This document shows, in pieces, positions 313 to 20,000 of a DNA stretch of 20,000 bases (position 1 is its first letter; every line of letters starts with the position of its first letter). This stretch comes from Chiloscyllium plagiosum (Eukaryota): the NCBI RefSeq assembly GCF_004010195.1, contig NC_057749.1:10125043-10145042 (forward strand). The letters are read 5' to 3'. The notes below the pieces were generated by a model that worked only from the letters and a program-made list of their open reading frames with translations, was not told the origin of the DNA and searched no databases. The position numbers and the translations under genes were made by a program.

Positions 313-396
313 AGTAAATGCTGAAGAAACTTAGCAGATCTGGCAGCATCTGCAGAGAGAGAAGTAGATCCAGTGTTTCGGGTCAGAACTTCATCA
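313..396 (-). mobile_element. Degenerate Penelope-like terminal repeat fragment with decayed hammerhead motif
   Basis: gctgaagaaacttagcagatctggcagcatc...gtttcgggtc...cttcatca resembles the terminal repeats at 3587, 14918, 16942 and 19864. Confidence 0.55.
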
Positions 397-631
397 TTTT
401 TTATTTTTCTTGTATGGCCAATCCTTCCTGTTCACTTCCAAATTCACATTTCAAATCGTGGTTTGACCTTCTCTCGAAGGTCTGTATCTCTCATCCAGTT
501 AATAAGCAGAAGGCAAACACATATTTCATACCAACGTGGGGCCAGTATAAAGGTGACCTGTCCTAAGATAATAACCAGTGGTTTACTCTTGCATTGATGT
601 ACTGAGTGTCGAGGTGTTTGCTCCACTGCAG

Positions 632-791
632 GTGATAGGGTCGCCATTGAGCCCGGAATCCCCAGAGAAATTGACGAACATTGCCGAACTGGGCGTTACA
701 ACCTCTCGCCAACAATCTTCTTCTCTGCTACCCCTCCCGATGATGGGAACCTTTGCCAATACAATACCCACGATGCCAGCTACTGTTACAA
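632..791 (+). CDS. SORD: Sorbitol dehydrogenase, internal exon (human exon 4 equivalent)
   Basis: ctgcAG|GT GAT AGG...TAC AA|GTgagc; 160 nt; translates (G)[52 protein letters not shown](K), recognisably SORD. Not captured in frame by the ORF track. Confidence 0.96.
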
Positions 792-954
792 GTGAGCATC
801 TGTTTCATGTAATAATATATTTATGAAGATCCTTGGGCAGCTTTGTGTTAAAGAGTGAGAATTGGTTATGTACAGCTTGGGGACTAACCACTCCACAAGA
901 GGAGGGGGGACGGTGAGGAAGCAGGTCTTCTGCAAACTATGACAATTTGAACAT

Positions 955-1637
955 TTGACGTCTCTGGAACTATACTTGGTGGAGTTTAGAAGGATGAGGA
1001 GGGATCTAGTTGAAACTTACAGTTTACTGAACAGCCTGGACAGAGTGGACATTGGGAAGATGTTTCCACTGACAGGAGAGACGAGGACCCAAGAGCGCAT
1101 ACTTAGAGGAAAGGGAATAGCCCCTAGAACCGAGATAAGGAGAAATCTCTTTAGCCAGAGAATGGTGAATCAGTTGAAGTCATTGCCACAGAAGGCTGTG
1201 GAGGTCATTGAGTATATTTAAAACAAAGAGAGTTAAATTCTTGATTGCCAAGAGGGTCAAGGCTATGGGGTGAAAGAGGGATTAGATTAGATTAGATTCC
1301 CTAAAGTGTGGAAACGGCCCTTCAGCCCAACCAGTCCACACCGACCCTCTGAAGAGCAACCCATCCAGACCCATCCCCCTCTGACTAATGCATCTAACAC
1401 TATGGGCAATTTAGCATGGCCAATTCACCTGACCTGCACATCTTTGGACTGTGGGAGGAAACCGGAGCACCCGGAGGAAACCCACGCAGACACGGGGAGA
1501 ATGTGCAAACTCCACACAGACAGTTGTCCAAGGCTAAGAATGGGCTTGAGAAACTTATCAAACATGATTGAATGGCCGAGCAGATTGATGGGCCGAATGG
1601 CCTAATTTCTGCTCCTATGTCTAATTTCTTATGGTAT
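955..1637 (+). mobile_element. CR1-type LINE 3' fragment, interrupted by a SINE
   Basis: ORF 955-1221 (LYLVEFRRMRRDLVETY...RRNLFSQRMVNQLKSLP) is CR1 ORF2 C-terminus; 3' UTR gatgggccgaatggcct...ttcttatggt follows the SINE. Confidence 0.85.
1280..1535 (-). mobile_element. HE1/V-SINE-like SINE, 5'-truncated
   Basis: (gatta)n tail; core gggaggaaaccggagcacccggaggaaacccacgcagacacggggagaatgtgcaaactccacac shared with seven other copies here. Confidence 0.9.
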
Positions 1638-1705
1638 AGAGGTTGGACTGTGTGCTTTATTCTGCACTGCACTCTAGTTATCTAGCCAACTGAACTAATT
1701 GCGTC

Positions 1706-1835
1706 AACTGAGGTTACATTGAAGGTCCCACCTTCTCAACCTCACCCCTTCTCTGAGGCATGGTGACCCTCAGGTTACACTACTACCCGTTGTCGCTCTC
1801 ACGATTGAGACAGCAGCACTGTGATCCTCTGGGGC
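1706..1835 (+). repeat. Unclassified dispersed repeat (copy 1)
   Basis: ctgaggttac..tgaagg...cttctcaac...ctcaggtta.ac.ac.acc...gtc.ctctc aligns by eye with 18042-18171. Confidence 0.6.
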
Positions 1836-1837
1836 GA

Positions 1838-2268
1838 TCGAATCAGCCCCTTTGGCCCATCAAGTCTGTGCTGCCAAAAATAAATAACTAGCTATATTAG
1901 TCCCACTGCACCTGAATGTTATAATATTGCATGTGCTCATGCATGTACTTGTAAAAGGTTGTGAGGTTTCCCACCTCAACTATCCTTCCAGGTAGTGACT
2001 TCCAGACCCCTGCCACCCTCTTGGTGAAAAAGGTTTTCTTCCAGTCCCCTCTAAACCTCACTTTAAAATTATGCCTCCTTGTTATTGACCCTTCGACTGT
2101 GGGGAGCAGATGCTTTATTTTTATCTTGTCCATGCCCCTCGTAATGTTACACATGTTTATCAGCACTTCTCCCAACTTGCTTTGCATTGAAGCAAACAGC
2201 TTGTCCAGCCTCTCTTCATAGCTGCAACATGCTGGTGAATCTCCTTGGCACTACTCCAGTGCAGTCAT
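1838..2268 (-). mobile_element. CR1-type LINE 3' fragment
   Basis: ORF 1897-2187 (-): TRRHNFKVRFRGDWKKTFFTKRVAGVWKSLP, CR1 ORF2 C-terminal signature. Confidence 0.85.
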
Positions 2269-2467
2269 ACATTGTCGACTTCATACCTCAGTTCTGATCC
2301 CCATGGTGGGTTGAAGCAATATATTATGGGGTAATGGGATAACATTGGGAATTTATAAAAATGGAAATTTTGACTGCGTGGATGGAGAATGTAAAGGCCT
2401 TTTTCCTTGGGTATTAATCTGGCCTATGTCCTAAATACCCAGTTAAACACATATGCATAGCAACTCA

Positions 2468-2744
2468 GGTGGAGGTTAAGTGGTTAGCACTGCCACCTTA
2501 CTGTGCCAGGAACTTGGGTTCAATTTCCACCCTCAGGCGACTGTGCAGAGTTTTCACCTTCTCCCTGTGTCTGCGTGGGTTTCCTCCATGTGGTCTGGTT
2601 TCCTCCCACAGTCCAAAGATATGCAGGCTGGATGTATTAGCCATGGGAAATGCAGGGATAGGGTAGGGAGGGACCAGGGTCTGGGTGGGAGGGTCAGTGT
2701 GGACTCGATGGGCCGAATGGCCTGCTTCCACACTGTAGGGATTC
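2468..2744 (+). mobile_element. HE1/V-SINE-like SINE
   Basis: agtggttagcactgcc / gggttcaatt (A/B-box-like), central core, 3' gatgggccgaatggcctg...cactgtagggattc. Confidence 0.9.
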
Positions 2745-3586
2745 AACGTTACTGTGGCCCTCAAAGAAATAAAGTGTTGCAATTCCTGTGAGCTGAAGCG
2801 TTCTTGTTTATAAGACAGTGATGTGCCCTAAGCAAACAGTAGGTCTATTTATTACACTTTTTGGATTGGATTTCCACTGCACACCCCTGTCACATGATCA
2901 AGAGACAAATATTGTGCTCATGTTACAGAGCTCCAGAACAGTGACCTATCATTAGTTTTGGCAAGTAGGTACTTGAAGTAACAGAATATGCCAGTGTGTA
3001 TTTGAAACCAGCTTATCAAAAAAATTACGCAATATAATCTTTCAGGTTACTTTGCAAATTTTCCAACCAATTCTTTCAGAAAGGAAATTAAGAACAAAGA
3101 ATCTCTATGCAAGTTTTCACTCTCACGTGGGTTCATTAGACTAACAACATTTTACCAATTCTGTTCCTAAATTGTCTACACTCCTAGTGACATGCCATGA
3201 TTTAATCTAAAAGGGTTACCCTATCTTAGAACTCATGTACTGAATACATTTCCTGCTGGAACTTGGATTTGGCAAATTCTCACTGTACTGCCTAAGATTT
3301 CTCTTAAAAATGGATTTAATCGCAGAGAGAATCACAGAGTTGTTGCTGTGCAGAAGGAAGCCATTTGGCCCATCGAATCTGCACTGGCCCTCTGAATATG
3401 CATTTTGACTTAGTGCCATTTTTTTGTCATCCTGTAAGTTGTTCTATATAAATAATCAGCAGTGCCCTCTTGAATGCTTCAATTCAACTCTGCATTCTAG
3501 ACAGTGCACTCCAGACCATTGTACCATTGCAGTTCGACCTCCCTATTCTTCGATTCCCACCCCCTTAGAATAAGGGCCAATGTTCC

Positions 3587-3817
3587 ATTAGAGTGTTGCT
3601 GGAAAAGCACAGCAGGTCAGACAGCATCCAAGGTGCAGGGAAATCAATGTTTCGGGCAAAAGCTCTTCATCAGGAATGAATGAAGCTCCTAATGAAGGGT
3701 TTTTGCCCGAAACCTCAATTTTCCTGCTGCTCAGATGCTGCCTGACCTGCTGAGCTTTTCCAGCACCACTCTAATCTTGACTCTGATCTCCAGCATCTGC
3801 AGTCCTCACATTCGCCT
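3587..3817. mobile_element. Fold-back non-autonomous Penelope-like element (two inverted terminal repeats, each with a hammerhead motif)
   Basis: About 3587-3675 is an imperfect reverse complement of about 3687-3775; flanks atgttccatt / atattccatt look like a target duplication. Confidence 0.8.
3646..3673 (-). ncRNA. Minimal hammerhead ribozyme motif (core intact, helix II with one mismatch)
   Basis: Minus strand CUGAUGA-A-GAGC-UUUU-GCCC-GAAA-CA-UU. Confidence 0.55.
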
Positions 3818-4065
3818 GATATTCCATTTGCCTTCCTGAATATCTACTGCCTGTCTGTTCAAGCTATCTGAGTATCTTGCACAAGCGTACCCCCAAGTCC
3901 CTCTGTGTTGCAGCTCTGCACAGTTTCTCTCCATTTAAATAATATTCTGTTCTTTTGTTCTCCTTTCCAAAATGAACAACCTTGCATTACACTGCATTTG
4001 CCAAATTTTTCCCATGTACTTAATCTATCAATATCTCTCTGTTAATTGCTTGTATCCCTCTCACA

Positions 4066-4219
4066 GTCAAAAAGTGCGGTGCTGGAAAAACACAGCCGGT
4101 CAGGTAGCATCCCAGGAGCAGGAGAGTCGACATTTCGAGCATAGCTCTTCATCAGGTGCTTTTCCAGCACCGCATTTTTTGATTCGGATCTCCAGCATCT
4201 GCAGTCCTCACTTTCTCCC
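4066..4219. mobile_element. 154-bp ORF-less Penelope-derived element with perfect 15-bp target-site duplication
   Basis: TGTATCCCTCTCACA at 4051-4065 and 4220-4234; internal inverted repeat (about 4066-4093 vs 4156-4183); hammerhead motif at 4129-4155. Confidence 0.88.
4129..4155 (-). ncRNA. Minimal hammerhead ribozyme motif
   Basis: Minus strand CUGAUGA-A-GAGC-UAU-GCUC-GAAA-UG-UC. Confidence 0.65.
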
Positions 4220-4416
4220 TGTATCCCTCTCACAACCTACCTTTCCTCCTATTTTTGTGTTGTCTGCACATTTGGCTATAGTACATTCATTTCCTTCTTT
4301 CAAGTCACAAATATCTATTGGAAACAGTTGCAATCGCAGCACAGGTCCCTGTGGAAACCCACTGGTCCCAGAAATGAACCCCTTAACCCCACTCATGGTT
4401 TCCTGCCCATCAGCCA

Positions 4417-4722
4417 ATTAGATTAGATTAGATTACAGTGTGGAAACAGGCCCTTCGGCCCAACAAGTCCACACCGACCCGCCGAAGCGCAACCCACCCA
4501 TACCCCTATATTTACCCATTACCTAACTCTACGGGCAATTTAACATGGTCAATTCACCTAACCTGCACATCTTTGGGATTGTGGGAGGAAACCGGAGGAA
4601 ACCCACGCAGACACGGGGAGAACGTGCAAACTCCACACAGTCATTCGCCTGAGTCAGGAACTGAACCCGGGTCTCTGGCGCTGTGAGGCAGCAGTGCTAA
4701 CCACTGTGCCACCGTGCCGCCC
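4417..4722 (-). mobile_element. HE1/V-SINE-like SINE, full length
   Basis: Minus strand starts gggcggcacggtggcacagtggttagcactgctgcctcacagcgccagagacccgggttc and ends in (taatc)n. Confidence 0.93.
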
Positions 4723-4727
4723 ACGGT

Positions 4728-5075
4728 GAACAGGAGAATCGACGTTTCGGGCATAAGCCCTTCTTCAGGAATGAGGAAAGTGTGTCCAGCAGGCTAAGAT
4801 AAAAGGTAGGGAGGAGGGACTTGGGGGAGGAGCATTGGAAATGCGATAGGTGGAAGGAGGTCAAGGTGAGGATGATATGCCGGGGTGGGGTGGGGGCGGA
4901 GAGGTCCAGAAGAAGATTGCAGGTTAAGAGGGCGGTGCTGAGTTCGAGGGATTTGCCAGAGGTGTTCTCTGAAACGTTCCTCCGCAAGTAGGCCTGTCTC
5001 CCCAATATAGAGGAGGCCACATCGGGTGCAGCGGATGCAATAGATGATGTGTGTGGAGGTGGTGGTGAATTTGTG
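4728..5075 (-). mobile_element. Penelope-like element 3' fragment (GIY-YIG endonuclease remnant plus terminal repeat)
   Basis: Minus frame STHIIYCIRCTRCGLLYIGET...RFREH is a GIY-YIG motif; terminal repeat nearly identical to about 14970-15129. Confidence 0.9.
4741..4768 (-). ncRNA. Minimal hammerhead ribozyme motif (intact)
   Basis: Minus strand CUGAAGA-A-GGGC-UUAU-GCCC-GAAA-CG-UC. Confidence 0.75.
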
Positions 5076-5080
5076 AGAGA

Positions 5081-5183
5081 GATGAGCCAAATGCAGGCAA
5101 ATGGGATGAGTCCAGTTTAGGATATCTGGATGGCATGGGCGAGTTGGACTGAAGGGTCTGTTACCGTGCTGTATGCCTCTATT
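5081..5183 (+). mobile_element. CR1 3' UTR fragment
   Basis: Similar to the CR1 tails at 12241-12350 (-) and 17860-18018 (+). Confidence 0.7.
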
Positions 5184-5640
5184 CATTCATCGATGCTCAA
5201 TTTGAATGGAAGTGGCTCTGAAAAACCCTCCTGTGACATTTAACGCCATTGATTTATATGAACTTTTAATTAAAATCCTGAGAAGTTACAAAATGTCTTT
5301 GAATGAATAGAAGACGGACTCTCTTTAGTTGTAAGGCAGGATTTCCCTTGTGAAAGTTTGGGGACCTGAGCTCACTGCTGCCATGTCACTGTGTTCCACT
5401 GCACCCTCTCTCACTCTCACAAAGCATCATCCCCCTGCAATCCCAGATCTTCTCGCCCAACACCCCCACTCTGCCAGTTCACTCACTTAGGGACCATGAC
5501 GATTGGGAAGACTCAAAGAGGAATCAGGGTGGGAAAATGCATGGGTAACGCTGTTACCAGTGGTTGATTGTCAGTCTGTATTTGTCAGTTACTGACGCAC
5601 ATGTAGCACTTCAGTTTAAGGGAAATCCTTTCTGTACTCT

Positions 5641-5946
5641 CAGGTGGTTCAGTGGTGAGCACTTTGCCTCACAGCGCCAGAGACCTGGGTTCAATTTCTG
5701 CCTCAGGCGATTGACTGTGTGGAGTTTGCACATTCTCCCCGTGTTTGCGTGGGTTTCCTCCGGTGCTCCAGTTTCCTCCCACAATCCAAAAATGTGCAGG
5801 TTAGGGTGAATTGGCCGTGCTAAATTGCCCATAGTGTTAGGTGAAGGGGTAAATGTAGGGGAATGGGTCTGGGTGGGTTACGCTTCGGCAGGTCGGTGTG
5901 GACTTGTTGGGCCGAAGATCCTGTTTCCACACTGTAGGTAATCTAA
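5641..5946 (+). mobile_element. HE1/V-SINE-like SINE
   Basis: Reverse-complement homolog of 4417-4722; ends taatctaa. Confidence 0.92.
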
Positions 5947-6298
5947 ACTTGGAACTTTCAGAAATGCTGTTCTCGATGTTATAAATCATAATTACATGCC
6001 TGTCTGGTATTTCCCTGTATCTTGTCCTTGAAATTCAACCTGTCTGTATATCAACAAGCCAGACTTGAGATGAAATTACCTTTATGCCTCTCCCTTCCTC
6101 CTATGGTGCTCACTAATGAGGAAGCTAATTTCTTTCTTCTCACGGAAACTGGTTGGACTAGATAGACATCTTTACAAATGCAAAAGGCTCAAGGTTATAT
6201 TCAGCTGCTGCCTTTGACCTTCAAAGGGAAAAATTTGCACTTATAAAGCACCTTTCATCATGTCCCAAAGTGTCTCACTGTCAGTAGAGTACACAATT

Positions 6299-6490
6299 TG
6301 GAGATGCCGATGTTGGACTGGGGTGTACAAAGTTAAAAATCACACAGCACCAGGTTATAGTCCAACAGGTTTATTTGGAAGCACTAGCTTTTGGAGCGCT
6401 GATCCAGAGTTTTGCATTGACAGCCACCTGATGAAGGAGCTGCACTCCGAAAGCTAGTGCTTCTGAATAAACCTGTTGGACTATAACCTA
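6299..6490. mobile_element. Fold-back non-autonomous Penelope-like element (second family)
   Basis: aggttatagtccaacaggtttatttggaagcactagcttttggag is inverted against ctccgaaagctagtgcttctgaataaacctgttggactataacct; decayed flanking direct repeat gtagagtacacaatt (6284-6298) / gtaaaatacacagtt (6491-6505); related copy at 16534-16882. Confidence 0.8.
6425..6459 (+). ncRNA. Minimal hammerhead ribozyme motif (intact, sense to SORD)
   Basis: CAC-CUGAUGA-A-GGAG-CUGCA-CUCC-GAAA-GC-UA-GUG; helix I CAC/GUG, helix II GGAG/CUCC. Confidence 0.75.
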
Positions 6491-6760
6491 GTAAAATACA
6501 CAGTTGCAATGTGGCAACCAACTGGCACACAGCAAGCTCCCCACAAATAAAATCCATTTATGACTGGATCATCTGTCTTTTCTTTTTAGAAATTATAAAA
6601 TAAACCTTTTGTTTGAGAGTACAGTCGCCTCATGTCTTAAAGTTCATTTTAATGGAAAAGGCTTGGGTGGTAGAACTCTGGGTATTGTTGCTGAAATAGT
6701 GTTCCTGTTGTGAAAGAACTTCAGAGGGTTTTGCTACTGAAGTCATTGTTGGCAACATCA

Positions 6761-6970
6761 CATCTACCACATTGTATCCACCATATTGTATCCACCATGT
6801 TATATCTCCCACACTGTAACTATCCACATTGCTTCTGCCTCATTGTATCTACCACACTATCTATCCATACTCTTTCTTCCTCATTGTATCTACTGACATT
6901 GTATCTATCTATGGTGTATCTATCTACATTGTATCTATTCACATTGTACCTATTTACATTGTTCTTATCC
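6761..6970. repeat. Degenerate minisatellite, unit about 14-15 bp (cattgtatctayca-like)
   Basis: Recurrent attgtatc(c/t)a motifs; explains low-complexity ORFs 6710-7027 and 6820-7002. Confidence 0.85.
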
Positions 6971-7120
6971 AAATGGGCCCAGAATACTGATGTGAGCACC
7001 ATTGAATCAGTATTATTTTTTGCTTAAAAGATTTTTACTCCCTTTCTATCACATGGACATTAACTTACAGTGGCTTGGTAGTGTAGAACTTGAATATTAC
7101 TGAAGTAAGAGGGTTTAGTG

Positions 7121-7880
7121 GAGTCAAAGAGCCACACAGCATAAAAACAGACCCTTCAGTCCAACCTTTCCATATCAAACATATTCCCAAACTAAACTAG
7201 TCCCACCTGCCTGCTCCTGGCCCACATCCCTCCAAACCTTTCCTGTTCATGTACTTATCCAAATGTCTTTTAAGTGTTGTAAGTGTACCCGCATTCACCA
7301 CTTCCTCGGGAAGTTCATTCCACACGCAAACCACCCACTGTGTAAAAAAAATGCCCCTCATATCTTAAATATCTGCCCCCCATCCTTGGGGAAAAGATGA
7401 CTACCATTAACTCTATGTATACCCCTCATTATTTTGTAAAGTTCTATAAAGTTGCCTCTCAGCCTCCTTTACCTGAGTGAAAAACCTCCCAGCCTCTCCA
7501 GCTTTTCTTTATAATTCAAACCTTCGACACCCAGGAACATTCTGGTAAATCTCCTCTGAACCCTTGCCAGCTTAATAATATTCTTCCTGTAACTGGGTGA
7601 CCAGAAGTGAACTCAGTACTCCAGAAGAGCCTCCACCAAGCTTCTGTACAACCTCAACCTGACGTCCCAACTCCTGTACTCAAATGACTGTACAATAAAG
7701 GCAAGTATGCTAAAAGCCCTTTTAACCATCCTGTGATGCAAACTTCAAAGAATTATGTACCTGAATCCCTAGGTCCATCTGTTCAACAGCACTACCCAAA
7801 GTCCTACCATTAACTGTATAAGCTCTACTCTTGTTTGTTTTACCAAAATGCAATACTTTGCATTTATCCAGACTGAACTC
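7121..7880 (-). mobile_element. CR1-type LINE 3' fragment
   Basis: Collinear similarity with 12241-13045 (acagacccttc.gtccaac..., cccaactcctgtactcaa, ttgcatttatc). Confidence 0.88.
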
Positions 7881-8258
7881 TTTACATTCACCATGGCATG
7901 TGCAGGAATTACAAGCTTGAAAGGGAACAATAAATCATACTGAGTTGTCAAGCTAACTTTGATTGCAATGGAAAATGCATCTGGCAATTATGATGCTCTG
8001 CAATAACAAGGAACAAATCCAGGCACTTTTGAATTAATCAGAAGGATGGGGCAGAATAGCTCCCTGATGTGTTCTCTGGAGTAATGCTTTACCCAATCAC
8101 TTGACTTGCCAACCCCATGCAGTGTAAATAGTTGTTCCCTTTGAAATGTGACATTCTTGCATCTTGTTCTGATGAGGGCAAGACAATAAACCTTCAATGG
8201 TAAGTCACTTTATGTTTCAGGAAAGCTCAGTGTTTGTGCTGTTTCATTTTTGTTTCAG

Positions 8259-8377
8259 GCTCCCTGAATCTGTGAGCTTTGAGGAAGGTGCTTTGATTGA
8301 ACCCCTCTCTGTTGCAATTCACGCCTGTCGTAGAGGAGGGGTTACAATTGGCAGCAAGGTCTTCATTTTGGGGGCAG
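8259..8377 (+). CDS. SORD: Sorbitol dehydrogenase, exon 5 equivalent
   Basis: tttcAG|G CTC CCT...GCA G|GTaagc; 119 nt; (K)[39 protein letters not shown](G); phase continues from previous exon; contains EPLSV and the start of Rossmann GAGPIG. Confidence 0.97.
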
Positions 8378-8589
8378 GTAAGCCCATTGCATTTTGGGGG
8401 CAGGTAAACTCATTGATTGTGTGAGTAACTATTAGCACTGCTGAAAATTTTGAATGGAATATTTTTGCATTCTTCCATTTATTTTCACTCTTCCCCACCC
8501 CAGGCAGTCTCAGGTTAATGTTCAAGGAAGGAGGTACTTGGATTGGAGGTGCTACAATGAAGCCTCAGTATACTGATCCTTTTCATGAG

Positions 8590-9405
8590 TGGCTGAGTCA
8601 ACTGGGTCCATATTGTCACAAGTGTAGAAAAATGAGAGGTGATGTCATGGAATCTCTACAGTGTAGAAGTAGGCCATTCGGCCCATTGAGTCCACACCAA
8701 CTCTCCAAAGACCATTTCACCTAGAGCCAGCCCTCGCTACCCTATCTGTGTAACCCTGCATTTCCCATGGTTAACCCACCTAGCCTGCATATCCTGCACA
8801 CTGTGGGCAATTTAGCATGGCCAATCCACCGAACTCGCACATCTTTGGACAGTGGGAGGAAACCGGAGCACCCGGAGGAAACCCAAGCAGACATGGGGAG
8901 AATGTGCTAACTCCACACAGACAGTTGCCCGAGGGTGGAGTGAAACCCAGGTTCATGGCGCTGTGAGGCAGTAGTGCTAACCACTGAGCCACTCGCTGAA
9001 ATGTAGGGATTCTGAAGAGTAAAAGCTGAGAGGTTATTTTCACCTGCTGGGGAAACTAGGACATGGGGCTCAGTCTCCAGATAAAGAACCTTCAGAACTG
9101 AAATGGATAATTTTTTGTTGAGCAAAGGTATGAAGGGATATGGGCCAAGGCTGGTATAGGGAGTTAGACCACAGCTCAGCCACAATCTCATCGAATGGTG
9201 GAACTGGCTTGAGGGGCTGAATGACCTGCCTAATTGAGATGAGGAAATCTTCCTCCGCTCAAAGGGCTGTGAACCTTTGGTATTTTGTATCCCAGGGAGT
9301 TGTGTATACTCCATTGTTGACATAATTAAGACTGGCATAGACTAAATCCCCGATATGGAGGTGAACAGGAAAGTGGAGAGGTAGAAGATGAGTCACAATC
9401 ATTTT
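8590..9405 (+). mobile_element. Nested CR1-type LINE fragments, interrupted by a SINE
   Basis: gaaaaatgagaggtgat..., ggggaaactaggaca..., CR1 3' tail (gaatggtggaactggcttgaggggctgaatgacct) and gagatgaggaaatcttc...aagggctgtgaacctttgg. Confidence 0.7.
8645..8995 (-). mobile_element. HE1/V-SINE-like SINE
   Basis: Core ggaggaaaccggagcacccggaggaaaccca; head gctgtgaggcagtagtgctaaccactgagccac. Confidence 0.92.
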
Positions 9406-9532
9406 GTTTTCATTTTTCTCTCTTGGGTTGTCAAAGTCAGCATACTGCCTATCCCGAACTGCCTTTGAACAATCTTCTGAACACTTTCCCTTATATGCCT
9501 TGGTGTCATGTTTTGAATTTACAATGCTTTTA

Positions 9533-9925
9533 CGAAATGAGACCAAAAAACTGCAGATGCTGGAATCCAAGCTGGACAAGCAAGAGGCTGGAGGAACACA
9601 GCAAGCCAGGCAGCATTAGGAGGTGGAGATGTCAACGTTTCGGGTGTAACCCTTCTTCAGGACTCAGGATGGGCGTGGGGGAAGCTGCAGATAAAAGGGG
9701 TGGTGGGGGAGAGGGGGATAGGTGAAGACAGGTAGAGGGTACGACCTGGTTGGCCAATGGGAGGAATGAATCTGGTTGTTGGCAGGGAGGAGTGGTAGGG
9801 AGGGAGAGGGACTGGGAAGGGAGTCTGGGGATGGGAAGGGAGATTATTTGGAATTGGAGAACTCCGTGTTGAGTCCTCCCGGTATGTCAGCTGTCCAGGC
9901 GGAAGATGAGGTGTTATTCCTCCAA
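9533..9925 (-). mobile_element. Penelope-like element 3' fragment
   Basis: Minus strand encodes decayed LEE*HLIFRL..PGGLNTEFSN, resembling the C-terminus of the PLE endonuclease region, followed by a terminal repeat with hammerhead motif. Confidence 0.8.
9631..9663 (-). ncRNA. Minimal hammerhead ribozyme motif (intact)
   Basis: Minus strand GUC-CUGAAGA-A-GGGU-UAC-ACCC-GAAA-CG-UU-GAC. Confidence 0.78.
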
Positions 9926-11705: not shown

Positions 11706-11721
11706 GACATATATATACATA

Positions 11722-12240
11722 AGTATGTAAAGTTAGCTCGCTGAGCTTGAAGATTTGTTTTCAGACGTTTCGTCACCATGACTAGGTAACATCATCAATG
11801 AGAGTCTCTGGTGAAGTGCTGGTGGTATGTCCCGCCTCTCTATTTATAGGTCTTGGTTTCTTAAGGTTGGTGATTTGATTTCCTGTTCTTTTTTTCAAAA
11901 GAAGGTAGATAGGATCAAAGTCGATGTGTTTATTAATGGGAGTTCTGGTTAGAATGCCATGCCTCGAGGAATTCTCGTGCGTGTTTTTGTTTTGCCTGTC
12001 ATAGGATGTGTGTGTTGTCCCAGTCAAAATGGTGTCCTTTTTTGTATGGAAACTAATGATAGTGGGTTGTGTCTTTTGGTGGCCAGTTGGTGTTCATGTA
12101 TCCTACTGACAAGTTTCCTGCTAGATTGTCCGACATAGTGTTTTTTACAGTTCTTGCATGGTATCTTGTAAATGACATTAGTTTTGCTGACAGTATCTAA
12201 TGGATCCTTTAGGTTCATTAGTCTCTGTTTAGGTGTGTTT
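11722..12240 (-). mobile_element. Penelope-like element 3' fragment (distinct family), GIY-YIG domain
   Basis: KDPLDTVSKTNVIYKIPCKNCKKHYVGQSSRKLVSRIHEH is a GIY-YIG motif; terminal repeat with hammerhead motif at 11761-11801. Confidence 0.9.
11761..11801 (-). ncRNA. Minimal hammerhead ribozyme motif (C3U variant)
   Basis: Minus strand UCA-UUGAUGA-U-GUUACC-UAGUCAU-GGUGAC-GAAA-CG-UC-UGA. Confidence 0.65.
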
Positions 12241-13675
12241 ATAGAGTCATAGTCATAGAGATGTACAGCATGGAAACAGACCCTTCGGTCCAACCTGTCC
12301 ATGCTGACCAGATATCCCAACCCAATCGAGTCCCACCTGCCAGCACCCGGCCCATATCCCTCCAAACCCTTCCTATTCATATACCCATCCAGATGCCTTT
12401 TAAATATTGCAATTGTACCAGCCTCCACCACTTCCTCTGGCAGCTCATTCCATACATGTACCAACCTCTGTGTGAAAAAGTTGCCTCTTAGGTCTCTTTT
12501 ATATCTTTCCCCTCTCACCCTAAACCCTCTAGTTCTGGACTTTCCCACCTCAGGGAAAAGACCTTGTCTATTTACCCTATCCATGACCCTCATGATTTTA
12601 TAGACCTCTATAAGGTCACCCTTCAGCCTCCGACGCTCCAGGGAAAACAGCCCCAGCCTATTCAACCTCTCCCTATAGCTCAAATCCTCCAACCCTAGCA
12701 ACATTCTTGTAAATCTTTTCTGAACCCTTTCAAATTTCACAATATCCTTCCGATAGGAAGGAGACCAGAATTGCAAACAATATTCCAAAAGTGGCCGAAC
12801 CACTGTCCTGTACAACTGCAACATGACCTCCCAACTCCTGTACTCAATACCCTGACTAATAAAGGAAAACATGCCAGACGCCTTCTTCACTATCCTATCT
12901 ACCTGTGACTCTTCTTTCAAGGAGCTATGAACCTGCACTCCAAGGTCTCTTTTTTCAGGAAAGGACCTGACTATTAAGTGTATAAGTCCTGTTAAGATTT
13001 GCTTTTGAAAAAGCAGCACCTTGCATTTATCTAAATTAAACTCTATCTGCCACTTCTCGGCCCATTGGCTCATCTGATAAAGATCCCGTTGTAATTCAAG
13101 GTAACCTTCTTCGCTGTCCACTACACCTCCAATTTTGGTGTCATCTGCAAACTTACTAATTATACATCTAAACTCATATCGGAGTCATTTATATAAATGA
13201 CAAAAAGTAGTGGACCCAGCACAGATTCTTGTGGCGCTCCACTGGTCACAGGCCTCTAGTCTGAAAAACAACCCTCCACCACCACCCTCTGTCTTCTACC
13301 TTTGAGCCAGTTCTGTATCCAAATAGCTAGTTCTCCATGTATTCCATGAGATCTAACCTTGCTAATCAGTCTCCCATGGGGAACCTTGTCGAACGCCTGA
13401 CTGAAGTCCATATAGATCACATCCACCGCTCTACCCTCATCAGTCTTCTTTGTTACTAAGTCAAAAAACTCAATCAAGTTTGTGAGACATGATTTCCCAC
13501 GCACAAAGCCATGTTGACTGTCCCTAATCAGTCCTTGCCTTTCCAAATACATGTACTTCCTGTCCCTCATGGTTCTCTCCAACAACTTGCCCACTACCAA
13601 CATCAGGCTCACCGGTCTATAGTTCCCTGGTTTGTCCTTGCCACCTTTTTTTAAACAGTGGCATCACGTTAGCCA
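12241..13675 (-). mobile_element. CR1-type LINE, about 1.4 kb of RT domain and 3' end (disrupted)
   Basis: SQHGFVRGKSCLTNL, VDVIYMDFSQAFDKVPH, decayed PQG motif, FADDTKIGG, RPLLEYC..WSP; in-frame stop and frameshifts; tail (ctatga)n. Confidence 0.95.
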
Positions 13676-13950
13676 AACCATGTTGCAGTGGGTCTGGAGT
13701 CACATGCAAGCCAGACCAGTTAAGGATGGCTGATGTCCTTCCCTCAAGGACATTAGGATGGGATTTTACCAAAATCTATGATAGTGTCATAGTCACCATC
13801 TCGGAGATTAGCTTTCAATTCCAGCTTTTATTAGTTGAATTTAAATTCCACCCACTGCCCTGGTAGGATTTGAACTCTTGTCCCCAGAGAATTAACTCTG
13901 GCCTCTGGATTATTAGCCCAGAACCATTAGCACTAAATCACGACCTCCTC
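13676..13950 (-). mobile_element. tRNA-derived SINE (probably DeuSINE/SacSINE1-like)
   Basis: Minus strand ctaatgtccttgagggaagga...ccttaactggtctggcttgcatgtgactccagaccc resembles the recalled Deu-type central domain; homologous to 1-155. Confidence 0.6.
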
Positions 13951-14060
13951 CATCCCTCATTAATCATGTGAGCAGTATTGTGACCAAAAGCAGAACTCGG
14001 TCTGCTATAGACCAATTGTCTTTCTGTAATTTATTCATTGGTGTTGACTCCCCAGGTAAT

Positions 14061-14397
14061 TGGCAGCACGATGGCTCGATGGTTAGCACTGCTGCCAACA
14101 GCACCAGGACCTGGATTCGATTCCAGCCTTGGGCGACTGTCTCTGTGGAGTTTGCACATTCTCTCCGTGTCTGCGTGGGTTTCCTCCCACTGTGCAAAAA
14201 TGTGCAGGTTATGTAGATTGGCCATTTTAAATTGCTCATAGTGTCCACGAAAATACAGGCTCGGTGGAGTAGCCATGGTAAATGTGGAGTTACGGGGAGT
14301 GGGTCTAGGGGGGTAGGTTGCCCTACAAAGAGTCAGTGCGGACCCGATGGGCCAAATGGCCTTCTTCCATTCTGTAGGGGTTCTCTGATTCTATGAA
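14061..14397 (+). mobile_element. HE1/V-SINE-like SINE
   Basis: ggcagcacgatggctcgatggttagcactgctgcc head, central core, tail gattctatga. Confidence 0.92.
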
Positions 14398-14982
14398 TTG
14401 ACTGCCTTAGATGTCTATCTTATGCTGTCCTTTTACTGTCTGCATTCAGTCCATTTCCTCACCCTCCCCAACTACCTTCTCTGAGTTTTTTCCATCACCT
14501 TCTATAGCTGTCTAAGTATATGACTGAAGTATTGTATTCCTCCCTCCCTCTCTCTTTGACATTATGTACTGTTCCTCTATTCTCCAACTGTTGCCAGAAC
14601 TTCCTCAGTGTCTTTTTGTCTGTGCAGGATCTGAAAACATTCTCCTGTAGCACCTCAGGGTTTTTTTTCCCTGAGACTCAGTTTCTTTGATGTTGACATT
14701 TTCTCCATTCTGACAGAGTTGGTCTTAGTTATCGCAAAACTTCAGTCTTTTATTTACCATTAATGTCATGTGTTTGTTGCATGTGTTATACCACTGAACA
14801 ATGCTGAGGTGACTCTTGTTCTACTTCTGCAACAGGGTAATTTTCTTGACTTCAAAATGTCTTAGTAATTACAAAATTTCTACACACACTCTCTCAAGCC
14901 AGGTTCAAGAACCTTTAGAGCTGAAAAATGTGTTGCTGGAAAAGTGCAGCAGGTCAGGCAGCATCCAAGGAGCAGGAGAATC

Positions 14983-15010
14983 GACGTTTCAGGCATAAGC
15001 CCTTCTTCAG
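14983..15010 (-). ncRNA. Minimal hammerhead ribozyme motif
   Basis: Minus strand CUGAAGA-A-GGGC-UUAU-GCCU-GAAA-CG-UC (G-U pair at base of helix II). Confidence 0.65.
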
Positions 15011-15129
15011 GAATGAGGAGGGTGTGCCAAGCAGGCTAAGATAAAAGGTAGGGAGGAGGGACTTGGGGGAGGGGCGTTGGGAATGCGATAGGTGGAAGGA
15101 GGTTAAGGTGAGGGTGATAGGCCGGAGAG

Positions 15130-15481
15130 NNNNNNNNNNNNNNNNNNNNNNNNNNNNNNNNNNNNNNNNNNNNNNNNNNNNNNNNNNNNNNNNNNNNNNN
15201 NNNNNNNNNNNNNNNNNNNNNNNNNNNNNNNNNNNNNNNNNNNNNNNNNNNNNNNNNNNNNNNNNNNNNNNNNNNNNNNNNNNNNNNNNNNNNNNNNNNN
15301 NNNNNNNNNNNNNNNNNNNNNNNNNNNNNNNNNNNNNNNNNNNNNNNNNNNNNNNNNNNNNNNNNNNNNNNNNNNNNNNNNNNNNNNNNNNNNNNNNNNN
15401 NNNNNNNNNNNNNNNNNNNNNNNNNNNNNNNNNNNNNNNNNNNNNNNNNNNNNNNNNNNNNNNNNNNNNNNNNNNNNNNNN
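15130..15481. other. Assembly gap (352 N)
   Basis: Run of N. Confidence 1.
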
Positions 15482-16533
15482 GGTGGGGGGGTGGATCTGA
15501 CGAGGGAGTGGCGGAGGGAGTGGTCTTTACGGAACGCCGATGGGGAGGGGAGGGAAATCTATCCTTGGTGGTGGGGTCTGTTTGGAGGTGGCGGAAATGA
15601 CGAAGGATGATACGATGTATCTGGAGGTTGGTGGGATGGTAGGTGAGGACCAGTGGGGTTCTGTCCTGGTGGCGATTGGAGGGGCGGAGGAGTGGGAAGT
15701 GGAGGAGATGTGGTGGAGAGCAACGTCAACCACATCTGAGGGGAAATTGCCATCTTTGAAGAAGGAGGCCACCTGGGTTGTTCAGTATTGGAATTGGTCC
15801 CCCTGGGAGCAGATGCGGTGGAGGCGAAGGAATTGGAAATATGGGATGGCGTTTTTACAGGGGGCAGGGTGGGAGGAGGTGTAATCTAGGTAGCTGTGGG
15901 AGTCAGTCGGTTTATAGTAAATGTCTGTGTTGAGTCGGTCACCCGAGATAGAAATGGAGAGGTCTAGGAGGAGGAGGGAGGAGTCTGAGACAGTCCAGGT
16001 AAATTTGAGGTTGGGGTGGAAGGTATTAGTAAAGTGGATGAACTGTTCAACGTTCTTGTGGGAGCACGAGGTAGCGCCGATACAGTCATCAATGTAGCGG
16101 AGGAAAAGGTGGGTGTGATGCCAGTGTAGCTGCGGAAGATGGACTGTTCCACATACCCTACGAAGAGGCAGGCATAGCTGGGGCCCATGCGGGTGCCCAT
16201 GGCTACTCTTTTGGTTTGGAGGAAGGAGGAGGATTGGAAAGAGAAGTTGTTCAGAGTGAGGACCAGTTCAGTCAGTCGAAGGAGGGTGTCCAGTTCAGTC
16301 AGTCGAAGGAGGGTGTCAGTGGAAGGGTACTGGTTGGATCGGCGGGAAAGGAAGGAGCGGAGGGCTTTGAGGCCTTCGTGATGGGGTTTGGCAGGAAAGG
16401 AAGGAGCGGAGGGCTTTGAGGCCTTCGTGATGGGGTTCGGCGGGAAAGGAAGAACCTTTACTGTGGTGTCAGCTACTTAAGCTCTCTAGCTCCACCTAGA
16501 GGGTTAAAAAATCTAGTACAATAAATGTAGATC

Positions 16534-16882
16534 AGGTCAGAAGTCACAGGACACCAGGTTATAATCCAGCAGGTTTACAGAGGAACCTCAATTATCCGGC
16601 ATTCGATTAACCGGGCTTTGGATCATCTAAACAAGATCACAAGGTCCCGATGTGTGGCTAACTACATTATCCGGCATCGATTATCCGGCATTCAATTAAC
16701 CGAACGAAATACTCTCCACCTGTGTTCTTTGGATAATTGAGTTTCCTGCATATTTAAAATCACCTGATGAAGAAGCAGTGTTCCAAGAACTTGTGACTTT
16801 AAATAAACCTGTTGGACTATAGCCTGGTGTCATGTAACTTTTGACTTTGTCCATCCCGGTGCAACACCAGCACCTCAACATC
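16534..16882. mobile_element. Fold-back Penelope-derived element (related to 6299-6490), decayed hammerhead at 16761-16795, interrupted by a MITE
   Basis: acaccaggttataatccagcaggttta inverted against taaacctgttggactatagcctggtgt; CAC-CUGAUGA...GUG retained but GAAA changed to AAGA. Confidence 0.75.
16578..16750. mobile_element. Tigger/pogo-like (Tc1-mariner superfamily) MITE
   Basis: TA|cagaggaacctcaattatcc ... ggataattgagtttcctgca|TA; imperfect terminal inverted repeats, TA duplication, internal attatccggcat x3; removal restores the host aggtttatttaaaatcac. Confidence 0.75.
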
Positions 16883-16941
16883 GCAACACAGACCAGTGAC
16901 TAGACCAATGCAATCAAACATAGGGTTTGAGGAACATGCTA

Positions 16942-17066
16942 TTCTAAGGAAAGGTCACTGGAACCAAAATGTTAATTCTGCTTTCTCTCCACAGATACTG
17001 CCAGACCTGCTGAGCTTTTCCAGCAAATTCTGTTTTTGTTTCTGATTTCCAGTATCCGCAGTCCTT
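16942..17066 (+). mobile_element. Solo Penelope-like terminal repeat with decayed hammerhead
   Basis: tt-ctaagga-aaggtcactggaacc-aaaa-tgtt-aa followed by ctgccagacctgctgagcttttccagca, as in the other terminal repeats. Confidence 0.7.
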
Positions 17067-17151
17067 GCAGCTTTTTTCAATCAAACACAGATCTATTAAA
17101 CCATTGAGCACTATGATTAATATTGCCACACATGTAATTCTAACGTTTCAG

Positions 17152-17333
17152 ATTTATCACTGAAAAGACTGGAAAAGGCAAAGCAAATGGGAGCCAGTTT
17201 CACAATCGCAGTCGAGCAGAATATGACACCCCAGGAACTGGGTCAGAAGGTGAAGCAGATCCTAGGTGGAGCTATGCCAGATATATCCATTGAATGCACT
17301 GGAGCAGAGCTATGTGTCCAAGGTGGTGTTTAT
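17152..17333 (+). CDS. SORD: Sorbitol dehydrogenase, exon 7 equivalent
   Basis: tttcAG|AT TTA TCA...GTT TAT|GTaagt; 182 nt; (D)LSLKRLEKAKQMGASFTIAVEQNMTPQELGQKVKQILGGAMPDISIECTGAELCVQGGVY; IECTG motif and the NAD-specificity Asp at the junction. Confidence 0.95.
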
Positions 17334-17434
17334 GTAAGTATGGAATTGGTATAGCTGACACTGATAGGTTAGATAGTTGAATAATTTTAAACAAAGATTA
17401 TAAATGCACGAGAAGCTGTTCAAGAGAAACTTCA

Positions 17435-18025
17435 CATGACTGATTCCAAGAGGGGGAAGGGGCTTGTCTTAAGAGGAAAGGTTGAGCAGTTTGTGCCTGG
17501 ACCTGTCAGAGTTCAGAAGAATGAGAGGTGATCTTATTGAAACATATAAGATCGTGAGGAAGGGTCCCTGGAGCATTGGAGGCTATGGGGTGACCTTATA
17601 GAGGTTTACAAAGTTATGTGGGGCATGGATAGGATAAATAAACAAAGTATTTTTCCTGGGGTGGGGGAATCCAGAACTAGAGGGCATATGTTTAGGGTGA
17701 GAGGGGAAAGATATAAAAGAGACCTCAGGGACAACGTTTTCACGCAGAGGGTGGTACGTGTATGGAATGAGCTGCCAGAGGAAGTGGTGGAGGCTGGTAC
17801 AATTGCAACATTTAAAAGGCATTTGATGGGTATATGAATAGGAAGGGTTTGGAGGGATATGGGCTGGGTGCTGGCAGGTGGGACTAGATTAGTCATAGAG
17901 ATGTACAGCATGGAAACAGACCCTTTGGTCCAACCCCTCCATGCCGACCAAATATTTTTGGTCAGCATTGACGGTTTGGACCAAAGGGTCTGTTTCCATG
18001 TTGTACATCTCTATGACTCTGTGAC
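17435..18025 (+). mobile_element. CR1-type LINE 3' fragments with fold-back 3' UTR
   Basis: ORF 17616-17837: SRTRGHMFRVRGERYKRDLRDNVFTQRVVRVWNELPEEVV; inverted duplication at 17891-18018. Confidence 0.9.
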
Positions 18026-18041
18026 AGAGTGGATGCTGGGA

Positions 18042-18171
18042 GGCTGAGGTGACTGTGAAGGAATCTGCTTCTCAACATCTCCCCAAATCTCAGGCTAAAC
18101 CACAACCAATCGTCTCTCTCTAATGAAGGAGTCACCCTAAGGACATCGAAGACTATGGCAACTTTACCTTT
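18042..18171 (+). repeat. Unclassified dispersed repeat (copy 2)
   Basis: Aligns by eye with 1706-1835. Confidence 0.6.
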
Positions 18172-18445
18172 CATATTCCAAAATGATCCCCCCAGAGAAG
18201 GGATCTCCAAGGTAGTGCAACTTTTACTGTATATATACTAAATCAGAATTTGTGATTGATTTGATCACAAAGAGGATTGGTGGTGACATTTTGACTGAGA
18301 AAGTGCTTTTGTTTTATTAAATCCTTGGCTACTATCACAAACTGCAGAATTTTAGGACAGGAATTTTGACAGGTGAATCTATGACTGCCTGAAATTGTGA
18401 ATGAATGTCTATTGTTTATTCCAACTATTTCACGTGTTTCCTTAG

Positions 18446-18567
18446 GCGACCAAGTCTGGAGGTGTGTTGGTTCTTGTCGGGTTAGGCCAACCTTCAACAA
18501 ACATCCCCTTGTTAGATCTGATAGTCCGAGAAGTGGATATCAGGGGAGTTTTCAGATATTGCAACAC
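18446..18567 (+). CDS. SORD: Sorbitol dehydrogenase, exon 8 equivalent
   Basis: ccttAG|GCG ACC AAG...AAC AC|GTaagt; 122 nt; [40 protein letters not shown](T). Confidence 0.96.
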
Positions 18568-18700
18568 GTAAGTACTTTAAAAAAAAATTATTGTAAAACT
18601 CCTGAATTCACTTGACTGATTATTATGGATTCAGTGGAAATCTCAGAATTCATGCTGATTTTTCATTAGTAGTAGTTGTAGTCATAGTCAATCAGAACCC

Positions 18701-19046
18701 TGCACGGTGGCTCAGTGGTTAGCACTGCTGCCTCACAACGCCAAGGACCTGGGTTCAATCCCAGCTTTAGGTAACTGTCTAAATGGAGTTTGTACATTCT
18801 CTCTGCATCTGTGTGGGTTTTCACCAGGTGCTCTGGTTTCGTCCCACAGTCAGAAAGATGGGCGGGTTGGGTGGGTTGACCATGCTAATTTGTCCACAGT
18901 GTCCAGGGATGCGCAGGTCTAGGTGGGTTAACCATGGGAAACGCAGGGTTCCAGGGATAGAGTAGGGAGCTGGTTGAGATGCTTTTGGGAGGGTTGGTGT
19001 GGAATCGATGGACCAAATAGCCTGCATTCACACTGTAGGGATTCTA
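18701..19046 (+). mobile_element. HE1/V-SINE-like SINE
   Basis: gcacggtggctcagtggttagcactgctgcctcac...gggttcaatccc head; tail cactgtagggattcta. Confidence 0.92.
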
Positions 19047-19417
19047 AAGAATTAGACAGGAGCTTGGGAACTCTGCAGGTTGCCCATTGCCTCAGCCAGT
19101 CGGAGTCAGGTTGCTAACCAACGAGCTCCCTTTATTCCTGAATGTTTGAAATTTGATATTCTTGCATTTGTCCTGATGACAGCAAGGCACAGAGTTTCTA
19201 TCAAGTGTCTCTCCTTTCCTGATGAATACGTGAGGTGTTCCCGGACATGTATCTTTACTTTTGAAGGTGCCAGACAACTTGAAATGATTATTTCACTATA
19301 ACACTGAATGGCAGTCAAAAATATAAAAGGTGGATGTGGAAGACTATTGACAAGTAAAAACCATGACTTGAATGATTACAGTTATCCTCCTTTCTCTTCT
19401 CATTCCTGTCACTTCAG

Positions 19418-19574
19418 GTGGCCAGTGGCAATCGATATGTTGGCTTCAAAGCGTATTGATGTGAAACCTTTGATCACTCATCGCTTTCCCCTGGAAGAGG
19501 CTCTCGAAGCGTTTGAAACCACAAAGAAAGGAGTGGGAATCAAAGTCATGTTGAAATGTGACCCGGACAACTAG
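19418..19574 (+). CDS. SORD: Sorbitol dehydrogenase, last coding exon (exon 9 equivalent), with stop
   Basis: cttcAG|G TGG CCA...AAC TAG; (T)[51 protein letters not shown]. Confidence 0.97.
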
Positions 19575-19863
19575 AGTGCCCCGAGAAAGTTGCTTCTTTT
19601 TCTGATGTGCAGGGTGCACCTTCAGTCGTAATCATTCAGGGGTCGTCCACTGACCAGTGGATAATTGTGCACATATCATTAGCGTGGGTGGGTACCTCGG
19701 CGTTAGGCTTCACTTTGCTCAGTATCATGTCAATTTTTTTTTTATTGTTCATTCTTAGCTGCCCTGGCATGCCCAGAAGCTGCAGTGTCCGACAGCTCCA
19801 GTAAGGGTTAAGGGCCAATAACATCCTATAATCCTATTGTAACACAGGACTAAAGCACATACG

Positions 19864-20000
19864 AGGAGAAAGTGAGGTCTGCAGATGCTGGAGATCAGAG
19901 ATGGAAATGTGTTGCTGGAAAAGCGCAGCAGGTCAGGCAGCATCTAGGGAACAGGAGAATCGACGTTTCGGGCATTAGCCCTTCTTCAGGAATGAGGAAA
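19864..20000 (-). mobile_element. Penelope-like terminal repeat downstream of the SORD stop (runs off window)
   Basis: Near-identical to 14925-15018 and 4728-4779. Confidence 0.88.
19962..19989 (-). ncRNA. Minimal hammerhead ribozyme motif (intact)
   Basis: Minus strand CUGAAGA-A-GGGC-UAAU-GCCC-GAAA-CG-UC. Confidence 0.75.

Follow-up and report, generated by a model that had tools for sequence, protein, structure and literature searches.

Are the short, hammerhead-like segments that recur in a 20,000-nt stretch of the Chiloscyllium plagiosum genome (RefSeq assembly GCF_004010195.1, contig NC_057749.1, positions 10,125,043 to 10,145,042; hereafter the window) genuine ribozyme motifs, to which elements do they belong, and what might they do? 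A preliminary description of this DNA had listed 12 such sites, attributed them to several families of Penelope-like elements (PLEs) inside one gene, and reported helices that change in compensation around a fixed core. Our analysis leads to the conclusion that the motifs are, very probably, the minimal hammerhead ribozymes (min-HHRs) of PLE terminal repeats (pLTRs), and that the window holds 5′-truncated, mostly mutated copies of at least four families, presumably inert and apparently intronic.

The window is 20 kb of repeat-rich DNA with one N run (15130-15481), in an assembly of 3.56 Gb. A loose pattern, CTGANGA-N4-30-GAAA, matched seven times in the window where 2.18 matches are expected, a number reached by 1 of 200 shuffles, and in all seven matches a complementary helix II lies between the boxes. 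A strict descriptor, in which the core is followed by a bulge of one nucleotide or none, a helix II with 4 or more base pairs, GAAA, a 15.2/16.2 pair that must be self-complementary, U and H, identified five sites, with core starts at 4768(-), 6428(+), 9660(-), 15010(-) and 19989(-). In 300 dinucleotide-preserving shuffles the same descriptor gave 0.01 sites on average and never more than 1. That the matches arose by chance, from a short degenerate pattern applied to repeat-rich DNA, could be suspected from the roughly two loose matches expected per 20 kb and from the absence of Rfam hits. That explanation is refuted by the strict descriptor counts, by reversed patterns that scored 0 where forward patterns scored tens of thousands, and by the setting of the sites, which lie inside interspersed repeats and have homologous repeat copies as flanks; we assign it virtually no weight. 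The 12 sites are as follows.

319..397, minus strand: strongly decayed hammerhead-plus-tail copy (nhmmer E 6e-4).
3646..3673, minus strand: family A hammerhead of A2 type (UUUU loop) with both boxes, a helix II A.C mismatch and ACAU for ACGU in helix III; left arm of a head-to-head pair.
3689..3716, plus strand: hammerhead forming the right arm of that pair; core CUAAUGA (G5 to A), broken.
4129..4155, minus strand: family A4 hammerhead with compensated helix II GAGC/GCUC and AUGU for ACGU in helix III (CpG decay).
4741..4768, minus strand: complete family A1 hammerhead, CUGAAGA-A-GGGC/UUAU/GCCC-GAAA-CGUC, with helix I UC/GA plus one further pair; 70.9 bits.
6428..6456, plus strand: complete family B hammerhead, GGAG/CUGCA/CUCC, with helix III AGCU, H17 = A and helix I CAC/GUG.
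9634..9660, minus strand: complete family D1 hammerhead, GGGU/UAC/ACCC, with helix I GUC/GAC and cleavage triplet GUU.
11764..11798, minus strand: family C hammerhead with a 6-bp helix II GUUACC/GGUGAC and helix I UCA/UGA; C3 is U (UUGAUGA), core broken.
14983..15010, minus strand: family A1 hammerhead that passes the descriptor; C11.1 to U gives a G.U closing pair (GGGC/GCCU).
16764..16792, plus strand: family B copy that has lost the GAAA box and helix II through decay; 78% identity with the copy at 6428.
16944..17065, plus strand: decayed hammerhead and tail resembling the GGGUC/GACCC (D2) type; core CUAAGGA, GAAA lost (nhmmer E 1.9e-8 over 16964-17065).
19962..19989, minus strand: complete family A1 hammerhead with loop UAAU, near the window end.

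All 12 sites are hammerhead-bearing repeat copies, as had been proposed, but they differ widely in preservation. Both the CUGANGA and the GAAA box are kept at seven, and the full descriptor is passed at five. The two both-box sites that fail it, 3646-3673(-) and 4129-4155(-), differ by changes of the CpG-to-TpG/CpA type, and the cores of the other five (3689(+), 11764-11798(-), 16764(+), 16944(+) and about 372-397(-)) are broken. Of the sites that the preliminary description gave as following the core pattern, 3689(+) and 11764(-) are thus broken copies; the decay that it had suspected at 16764(+), 16944(+) and about 365-396(-) was borne out. Its assignment to several families also holds, in that at least four repeat families in the window carry hammerheads: A, with subtypes (sites 3650, 3689, 4133, 4745, 14987 and 19966), B (6428 and 16764), C, and D (D1 at 9638).

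Structural details were taken from 42 parsed copies, namely those in the examined sequence that keep both boxes and whose stem is paired. A 1-nt bulge follows CUGANGA, between A9 and 10.1, in every one of them, and G10.1 is present in 40; within the window G10.1 is found in six of six copies and C11.1 in five of six. Helix III is reduced to the palindrome ACGU or AGCU in 29 of the 42; of the 13 that lack it, 10 have the sequences produced by CpG decay, AUGU or ACAU. Among the seven window copies with both boxes, five carry the palindrome, and there is no helix III loop. Genome-wide, the majority sequence of each family keeps CUGANGA, GAAA and UH in type-I order. The min-HHRs described in PMC4209133 (Cervera and de la Peña 2014) have a G10.1-C11.1 pair and a palindromic 15.2-16.2; the unpaired base between A9 and 10.1 is part of the known PLE min-HHR consensus, and many covarying families occur per genome as solitary or opposite-strand copies. 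All of the min-HHR sequence traits given there are found in these motifs. The extra unpaired base and the palindromic helix III, both singled out in the preliminary description, are thus real and already published, and the recurring motifs are genuine minimal hammerhead sequences, a known kind of element.

Two variations within family A can be recorded here. In subtype A3 (L031:1624-1665, L041:4993-5034), the cut site is followed by GAAU and not by GAUU; where helix I of A1 and A2 is interrupted (2 bp, U.U, 1 bp), that of A3 has four contiguous pairs, and A3 would therefore be the best candidate subtype for activity assays. In A1, loop II reads UUAUG, and an AUG frame of about 42 codons runs through the tail and closes just beyond it (L017:284-420). 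An open reading frame (ORF) start in loop II, like that of Poseidon PAc in Anolis, was considered on this basis but is not supported: the L017 frame ends just past the tail, the copy is a short fold-back, and loop II has no AUG in A2 (UUUUG) or A3 (CUGUG).

Around the fixed core, helices I and II differ between families and yet remain paired. Helix II occurs as GGGC/GCCC, GAGC/GCUC, GGAG(C)/(G)CUCC, GUUACC/GGUGAC, GGGU/ACCC and GGGUC/GACCC, and helix I as GAUU/AUUC (2 bp, U.U, 1 bp), GAAU/AUUC (4 bp), GAC/GUC and GUG/CAC, with both UGG/CCA and UGA/UCA in family C. Cross-family pairs were counted by parsing individual copies, because MAFFT misplaces stems of unequal length and shifts family B by one column. 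The helix I pairs given in the preliminary description (UC/GA, GUC/GAC, CAC/GUG, UCA/UGA) were recovered as stated. So were its helix II pairs, except that GAGC/GCUC is true of site 4133 only, site 3650 being GAGC/GCCC.

Quantitative support for compensation was sought in an alignment of 70 family A and D copies recovered in 310 kb with a covariance model built from ten A/D copies; families B and C were not recovered by this model in the same 310 kb. In the alignment, the proportion of paired cells is 81.7%, compared with 79.6% after shuffling (a value as high occurred in 1 of 500 shuffles), and 24 cells are changed on both sides, against 12.0 +/- 2.4 (0 of 500), with the pairing signal maximal at slide 0. 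These statistics come from related copies in a model-fitted alignment, and the events behind them are far fewer than the copies. Exact whole-genome counts for pair 10.2-11.2 gave 128,504 G-C, 2,901 A.C, 2,564 G.U and 1,943 A-U. The A-U state, for which about 161 copies are predicted under independence, is enriched about 12-fold (odds ratio about 34). The majority of GAGC/GCUC copies share one signature, CUGAUGA with a UUAU loop, and the class is therefore largely one amplified lineage that represents few events, not 1,943. The compensated lineage is evidence of selection on a source element, and the compensatory change that had been claimed is upheld.

The link to PLEs rests on protein-coding remnants next to the motifs, of which the window contains three.

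4794..5186, minus strand: GIY-YIG endonuclease remnant directly upstream of the 4741-4768 hammerhead; Pfam PF01541, E 2.2e-4, at 21.9 bits, below the gathering cut-off of 22.6.
12075..12176, minus strand: GIY-YIG remnant upstream of the family C hammerhead; Pfam PF01541, E 8.2e-3, below gathering.
15782..16476, minus strand: PLE reverse-transcriptase (RT) remnant (YIDD region) in the same copy as the 14983-15010 hammerhead, interrupted by the N run 15130-15481.

Both GIY-YIG remnants align to the GIY-YIG region of P0031 (E 8e-6 for the first and 3e-4 for the second), a 611-aa protein with precomputed domains RVT_1, PF28514, GIY-YIG and PF26215. A Pfam scan of the RT remnant gave no match. Its relatives are uncharacterised shark and ray proteins with RVT_1 and PF26215, one of them also with GIY-YIG, and its protein-language-model neighbours agree with them. 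The RT fragment has at least 151 matches in the genome (150 of 61,214 first-look candidates were scored). Of the 12 best loci anchored on the RT fragment, 10 have a hammerhead further downstream in the same orientation, and in 8 of these 10 the distance from the start of the RT match is 1.1-1.26 kb. N runs fall inside the PLE copies at 8 of the 12 loci (e.g. L011, L013, L015, L016, L019, L021), mostly between the RT region and the hammerhead. With these runs interrupting, no full-length PLE copy was seen at the 12 loci, and the 5′ pLTR and ORF start are unseen in them; an 837-aa "open frame" on another contig that was considered as a full-length PLE ORF proved to be an artefact of a 1,828-base N run. 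Families A and C follow the PLE layout, with the hammerhead directly downstream of RT or GIY-YIG remnants on the same strand. Because such remnants lie upstream and hammerheads lie downstream of RT loci, we take the two families to be PLE 3′ ends, and for these main families the proposed PLE identity is supported.

Two side observations concern the same remnants. The RT remnant contains two short tandem duplications, at 16263-16317 and 16339-16452 (two units of 27 bp and 2.3 units of 49 bp, respectively, with 93-100% identity). A reverse transcriptase of long interspersed nuclear element (LINE) type, at about 12180-13663(-) (RVT_1 E 1.1e-14, FADD motif), shares the stop-free frame 12024-13663(-) with the PLE GIY-YIG remnant, and the family C PLE copy is therefore adjoined or interrupted by a LINE copy. 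Sequences similar to the 3′ end of the same LINE are found at 943-1221(+), 1897-2250(-) and 17550-17837(+).

The arrangement of copies provides a second line of evidence. After the cut site, family A copies share a common tail, GAUUCUCC...GAUGCUGCCUGACCUGCUG...UUUUCCAGCA..., and fall into two 3′-end classes, one ending about 82 nt past the cut and the other about 35 nt further on; the interval between them matches the 30-40 bp "tail" of PLEs (PMC8557442). Most copies are 5′-truncated, many of them starting at the 5′ edge of the hammerhead. Inverted pairs occur in the window at 3587-3675/3687-3775, where the head-to-head arms are 84% complementary, at 4060-4156/4156-4209, where a short inverted tail piece (4156-4209/4227(+)) stands beside the 4129..4155(-) hammerhead, and at about 6296-6405/6416-6492, where the left arm partners the family B copy at 6428..6456(+). 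According to PMC8557442, inverted 5′-truncated partner copies are a PLE feature. The copies show this insertion pattern, namely 5′ truncation, an adjacent inverted 5′-truncated copy, and a tail in only some copies.

Genome-wide, 11,201 head-to-head pairs have 0-30 nt between cores and 1,002 have 31-60 nt, and 143 head-to-tail pairs have a spacing of 90-120 nt. By eye, the spacer is 5-6 nt in 16 and at most 10 nt in 28 of the first 50 tight pairs listed. In a pseudo-random 200 kb sample, 17 of 39 family A arms start at profile positions 100-113, the core itself starting at 111. In the literature consulted we found no statement that places the axis of such pairs at the hammerhead 5′ edge. None of the tandem arrays in the window carries a hammerhead motif. 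Elsewhere, rare micro-tandem arrays with a unit little larger than the hammerhead were noted (G000:C7:77281088-77281244, C7:77962992-77963147, C15:55272602-55273101); their periods are about 40 nt and 72 nt (seven or more units at 72 nt), and they resemble small retrozyme-type arrays or the outcome of template switching that occurred repeatedly.

These figures bear on an alternative in which the units of about 90-125 nt that start with the hammerhead are a separate non-autonomous class, resembling short interspersed nuclear elements or retrozymes and mobilised in trans by PLE enzymes. The clustering of arm starts beside the core speaks for such a class, and the excess of pairs at 0-30 nt over those at 31-60 nt points toward a defined 5′ end lying a few nucleotides 5′ of C3; moreover, a 2026 preprint (10.64898/2026.07.22.740005) argues that animal retrozymes derive from PLE pLTRs. 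Yet hammerhead and tail are continuous with PLE 3′ regions in the window copies at 4745 and 14987, at 10 of the 12 loci anchored on the RT, and in 9 of the 39 random arms, which extend 80 nt or more beyond the core on its upstream side (profile start at or below 30). Heavy 5′ truncation with an adjacent inverted copy is the published PLE insertion pattern, and head-to-tail tandems, the hallmark of retrozymes, are rare. We consider a separate class rather unlikely.

If the motifs are PLE pLTR min-HHRs, the hammerhead would sit in the pLTR just downstream of the RT/GIY-YIG ORF and be followed by a tail of about 80-120 nt. In source elements, multimeric or read-through PLE RNA is predicted to cleave itself 3′ of the UH triplet (H17), after GUC in families A and C, GUU in D1 and CUA in B. 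By analogy with published systems (PMC4209133, PMC6765202, PMC11167929), cleavage would probably occur only as a dimer formed through the ACGU/AGCU palindrome and/or with the element's protein. Genomic copies run 80-120 nt past the cut site, and their template RNA was therefore uncut at that hammerhead. This agrees with in vitro results from Anolis, in which unprocessed RNA was the main insertion substrate (PMC11167929). The window copies themselves are best read as inert relics, since 7 of the 12 have lost part of the motif, no two intact copies of the same family stand in tandem, and 7 of the 12 are antisense to the host exon described below.

Several observations weigh against the assignment of the motifs to PLE min-HHRs, in addition to the few events behind the GAGC/GCUC class. 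Helix I comprises only 2-4 bp in these copies. Minimum-free-energy folding of six copies was no better than that of shuffles (z -1.36 to +0.96), and predicted dimers pair through the cleavage-site palindrome and not in the catalytic fold; the folding energies favor neither side. Families B and D1 showed no link to an ORF in the 310 kb examined, and by their architecture alone they are provisionally placed with the PLE hammerheads. A cmscan of the window against Rfam gave no hammerhead family at the gathering score (0 matches) and none among the 9 matches at E<=10; weak microRNA-like matches at 6368-6473 and 3634-3729 (mir-1805-like, mir-365/mir-22-like) are the inverted repeat pairs themselves. 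The motifs share the catalytic core of the Rfam hammerhead families, but fall outside the curated models because helix III is missing and helix I is short. From the literature, PMC4209133 reports very low in vitro activity even as dimers, PMC11167929 reports that the hammerhead is dispensable for insertion in vitro and that no RNA-seq ends map to the Anolis cut site, and PMC8557442 describes PLE clades that thrive without hammerheads.

Part of this evidence would also suit a fold conserved for a non-catalytic role, as a binding or positioning site for RT or endonuclease or as a template-switch signal, with no cleavage in vivo. Weak activity in vitro (PMC4209133), the behavior of Anolis PAc (cleavage only with the element's protein, core mutants without effect on insertion, and the lack of RNA-seq ends just cited from PMC11167929), the short helix I and the clustering of fold-back junctions at the motif 5′ edge can all be read in this way. 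What stands against it is that the nucleotides fixed across dissimilar families (CUGANGA, GAAA, UH, G10.1-C11.1) are those of the catalytic core, while the helices are free to covary; a binding site alone needs neither the H17 rule nor a palindromic helix III. A purely non-catalytic role seems to us improbable, slightly more so than a separate class, and we retain the PLE min-HHR assignment.

Within that assignment, the head-to-head axis at the hammerhead 5′ edge suggests a further, tentative reading, which we hold to be doubtful. The hammerhead 5′ edge might be the discrete 5′ terminus of the RNA that is reverse-transcribed in most insertions, hammerhead-first RNAs of about 120 nt being the dominant template. 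Transcription from a start site within the pLTR, or internal initiation on the upstream pLTR, could give rise to such RNAs, and tight head-to-head pairs would then arise by cDNA snap-back or twin priming at the terminus. Selection on the motif may then act mainly on its ability to fix or hold a template end or an RNA dimer, and cutting of the transcript would be of lesser importance. The axis may equally be a by-product of the way in which PLE enzymes resolve insertion.

How many such motifs does the genome hold? Counts were made with exact patterns that require both core boxes and a paired helix II. They gave 128,504 copies for GGGC/GCCC (ACGUC is retained in 87,693 copies of this class), 22,241 for family B, 3,633 for GGGU/ACCC, 3,516 for family C with C or U allowed at core position 3 (C3 is present in 95 of the first 100 matches listed), and 1,943 for GAGC/GCUC. 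The five patterns total 159,837, which puts a motif every 22 kb or so. Of ten genome searches, nine had no match to the reversed control pattern, and the tenth (GGGU/ACCC) had 1+1. The 200 kb sample, which together with the whole-genome counts forms the basis for density, contains 10 copies in which both boxes are present and helix II has 4 bp or more, a density of about one in 20 kb; of its 39 family A/D arms of any state, 30 extend into the hammerhead, boxes and stem survive in 10, and 7 satisfy the full descriptor. With 6 copies with both boxes and a paired stem in 19.6 kb, the window is enriched about six-fold over the genome. The very large repertoire foreseen in the preliminary description is confirmed in number of motifs, but its rate of one motif per 2 kb is a local enrichment that cannot be extrapolated.

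Comparison with known systems places the motifs closest to the min-HHRs of PMC4209133. The two share the type-I layout, the CUGANGA and GAAA boxes, the bulge, the G10.1-C11.1 pair, the palindromic 15.2/16.2 without a helix III loop, and compensating families within each genome that are mostly solitary or in opposite-strand pairs from truncated elements. They differ in host, here a shark/ray lineage, in helix II, which is often only 4 bp here and 7-8 bp in Schistosoma, and in number: about 160,000 copies against the 4,000 of coelacanth and 9,000 of Xenopus that were termed remarkable, an excess of more than 10x. No cartilaginous fish appears in the text or supplementary file 2 of PMC4209133. 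Poseidon PAc of Anolis carolinensis (PMC11167929) is a vertebrate endonuclease-bearing (EN+) PLE with a pLTR hammerhead, probably like the elements here, and its reverse transcription from an internal site defines a "tail" that parallels the two 3′-end classes about 35 nt apart. The PAc ORF starts inside the hammerhead, whereas the loop-II AUG here is confined to A1 and its frame closes past the tail in the one copy examined.

Non-LTR retrozymes and amphibian satellite hammerheads (PMC7229834; 10.64898/2026.07.22.740005) are also of type I, with a weak palindromic helix III that requires dimers, reach very high copy numbers (126,247 in axolotl), and have a proposed origin in PLE pLTRs. They form head-to-tail tandem arrays, circular RNAs and loop-loop tertiary contacts, in contrast to the 143 tandems and 11,201 head-to-head pairs found here and to the window, where no array bears the motif. 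The axolotl figure refers to canonical type-I hammerheads (PMC7229834) in a genome of 28 Gb according to a later preprint; per megabase, the present motifs are about ten times denser. A literature search on shark hammerhead ribozymes and retrotransposons returned nothing relevant, and the one cartilaginous-fish genome included in a 2026 preprint figures there for tandem retrozymes only. The kind of motif is known; its shark-type lineage and its scale are undescribed in the literature searched.

The surroundings of the motifs in the window remain to be described. One host exon was identified.

17152..17335, plus strand: sorbitol-dehydrogenase-like host exon with AG/GT flanks; Pfam ADH_zinc_N, E 1.2e-6; PDB 3qe3 sorbitol dehydrogenase residues 200-262, E 5.4e-13.

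This is the only host exon found; about 90 nt separate its acceptor site from the end of the decayed PLE tail (16964-17065) that lies upstream. A Pfam scan for further exons gave no match; it covered 73 of the 199 short ORFs on the plus strand, chosen among the first 150 in the list, at positions below about 14.5 kb and clear of known repeats. The motifs appear to sit in introns of a sorbitol-dehydrogenase-like gene; the earlier placement inside one gene is supported by this exon and unproven beyond it. A separate feature is an 86-nt near-perfect hairpin at 17912-17997(-), which scores 41 bits (E 3.7e-6) with the mir-616 model, far below the gathering score of 100. It consists of two inverted copies of a repeat also present at 12250-12315, and is therefore most likely a transposon fold-back and not a microRNA gene.

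Within the window, the elements appear to be ordinary intronic debris. Taken across the genome, they confirm that PLE minimal hammerheads extend to a shark-type genome, in about 160,000 copies, and reveal that current Rfam models miss the whole min-HHR class. The asymmetry between head-to-head and head-to-tail copies, together with the clustering of starts at the motif 5′ edge, sets quantitative constraints on PLE insertion. If the discrete-terminus reading is true, this would be among the densest hammerhead-motif repertoires of the genomes compared.

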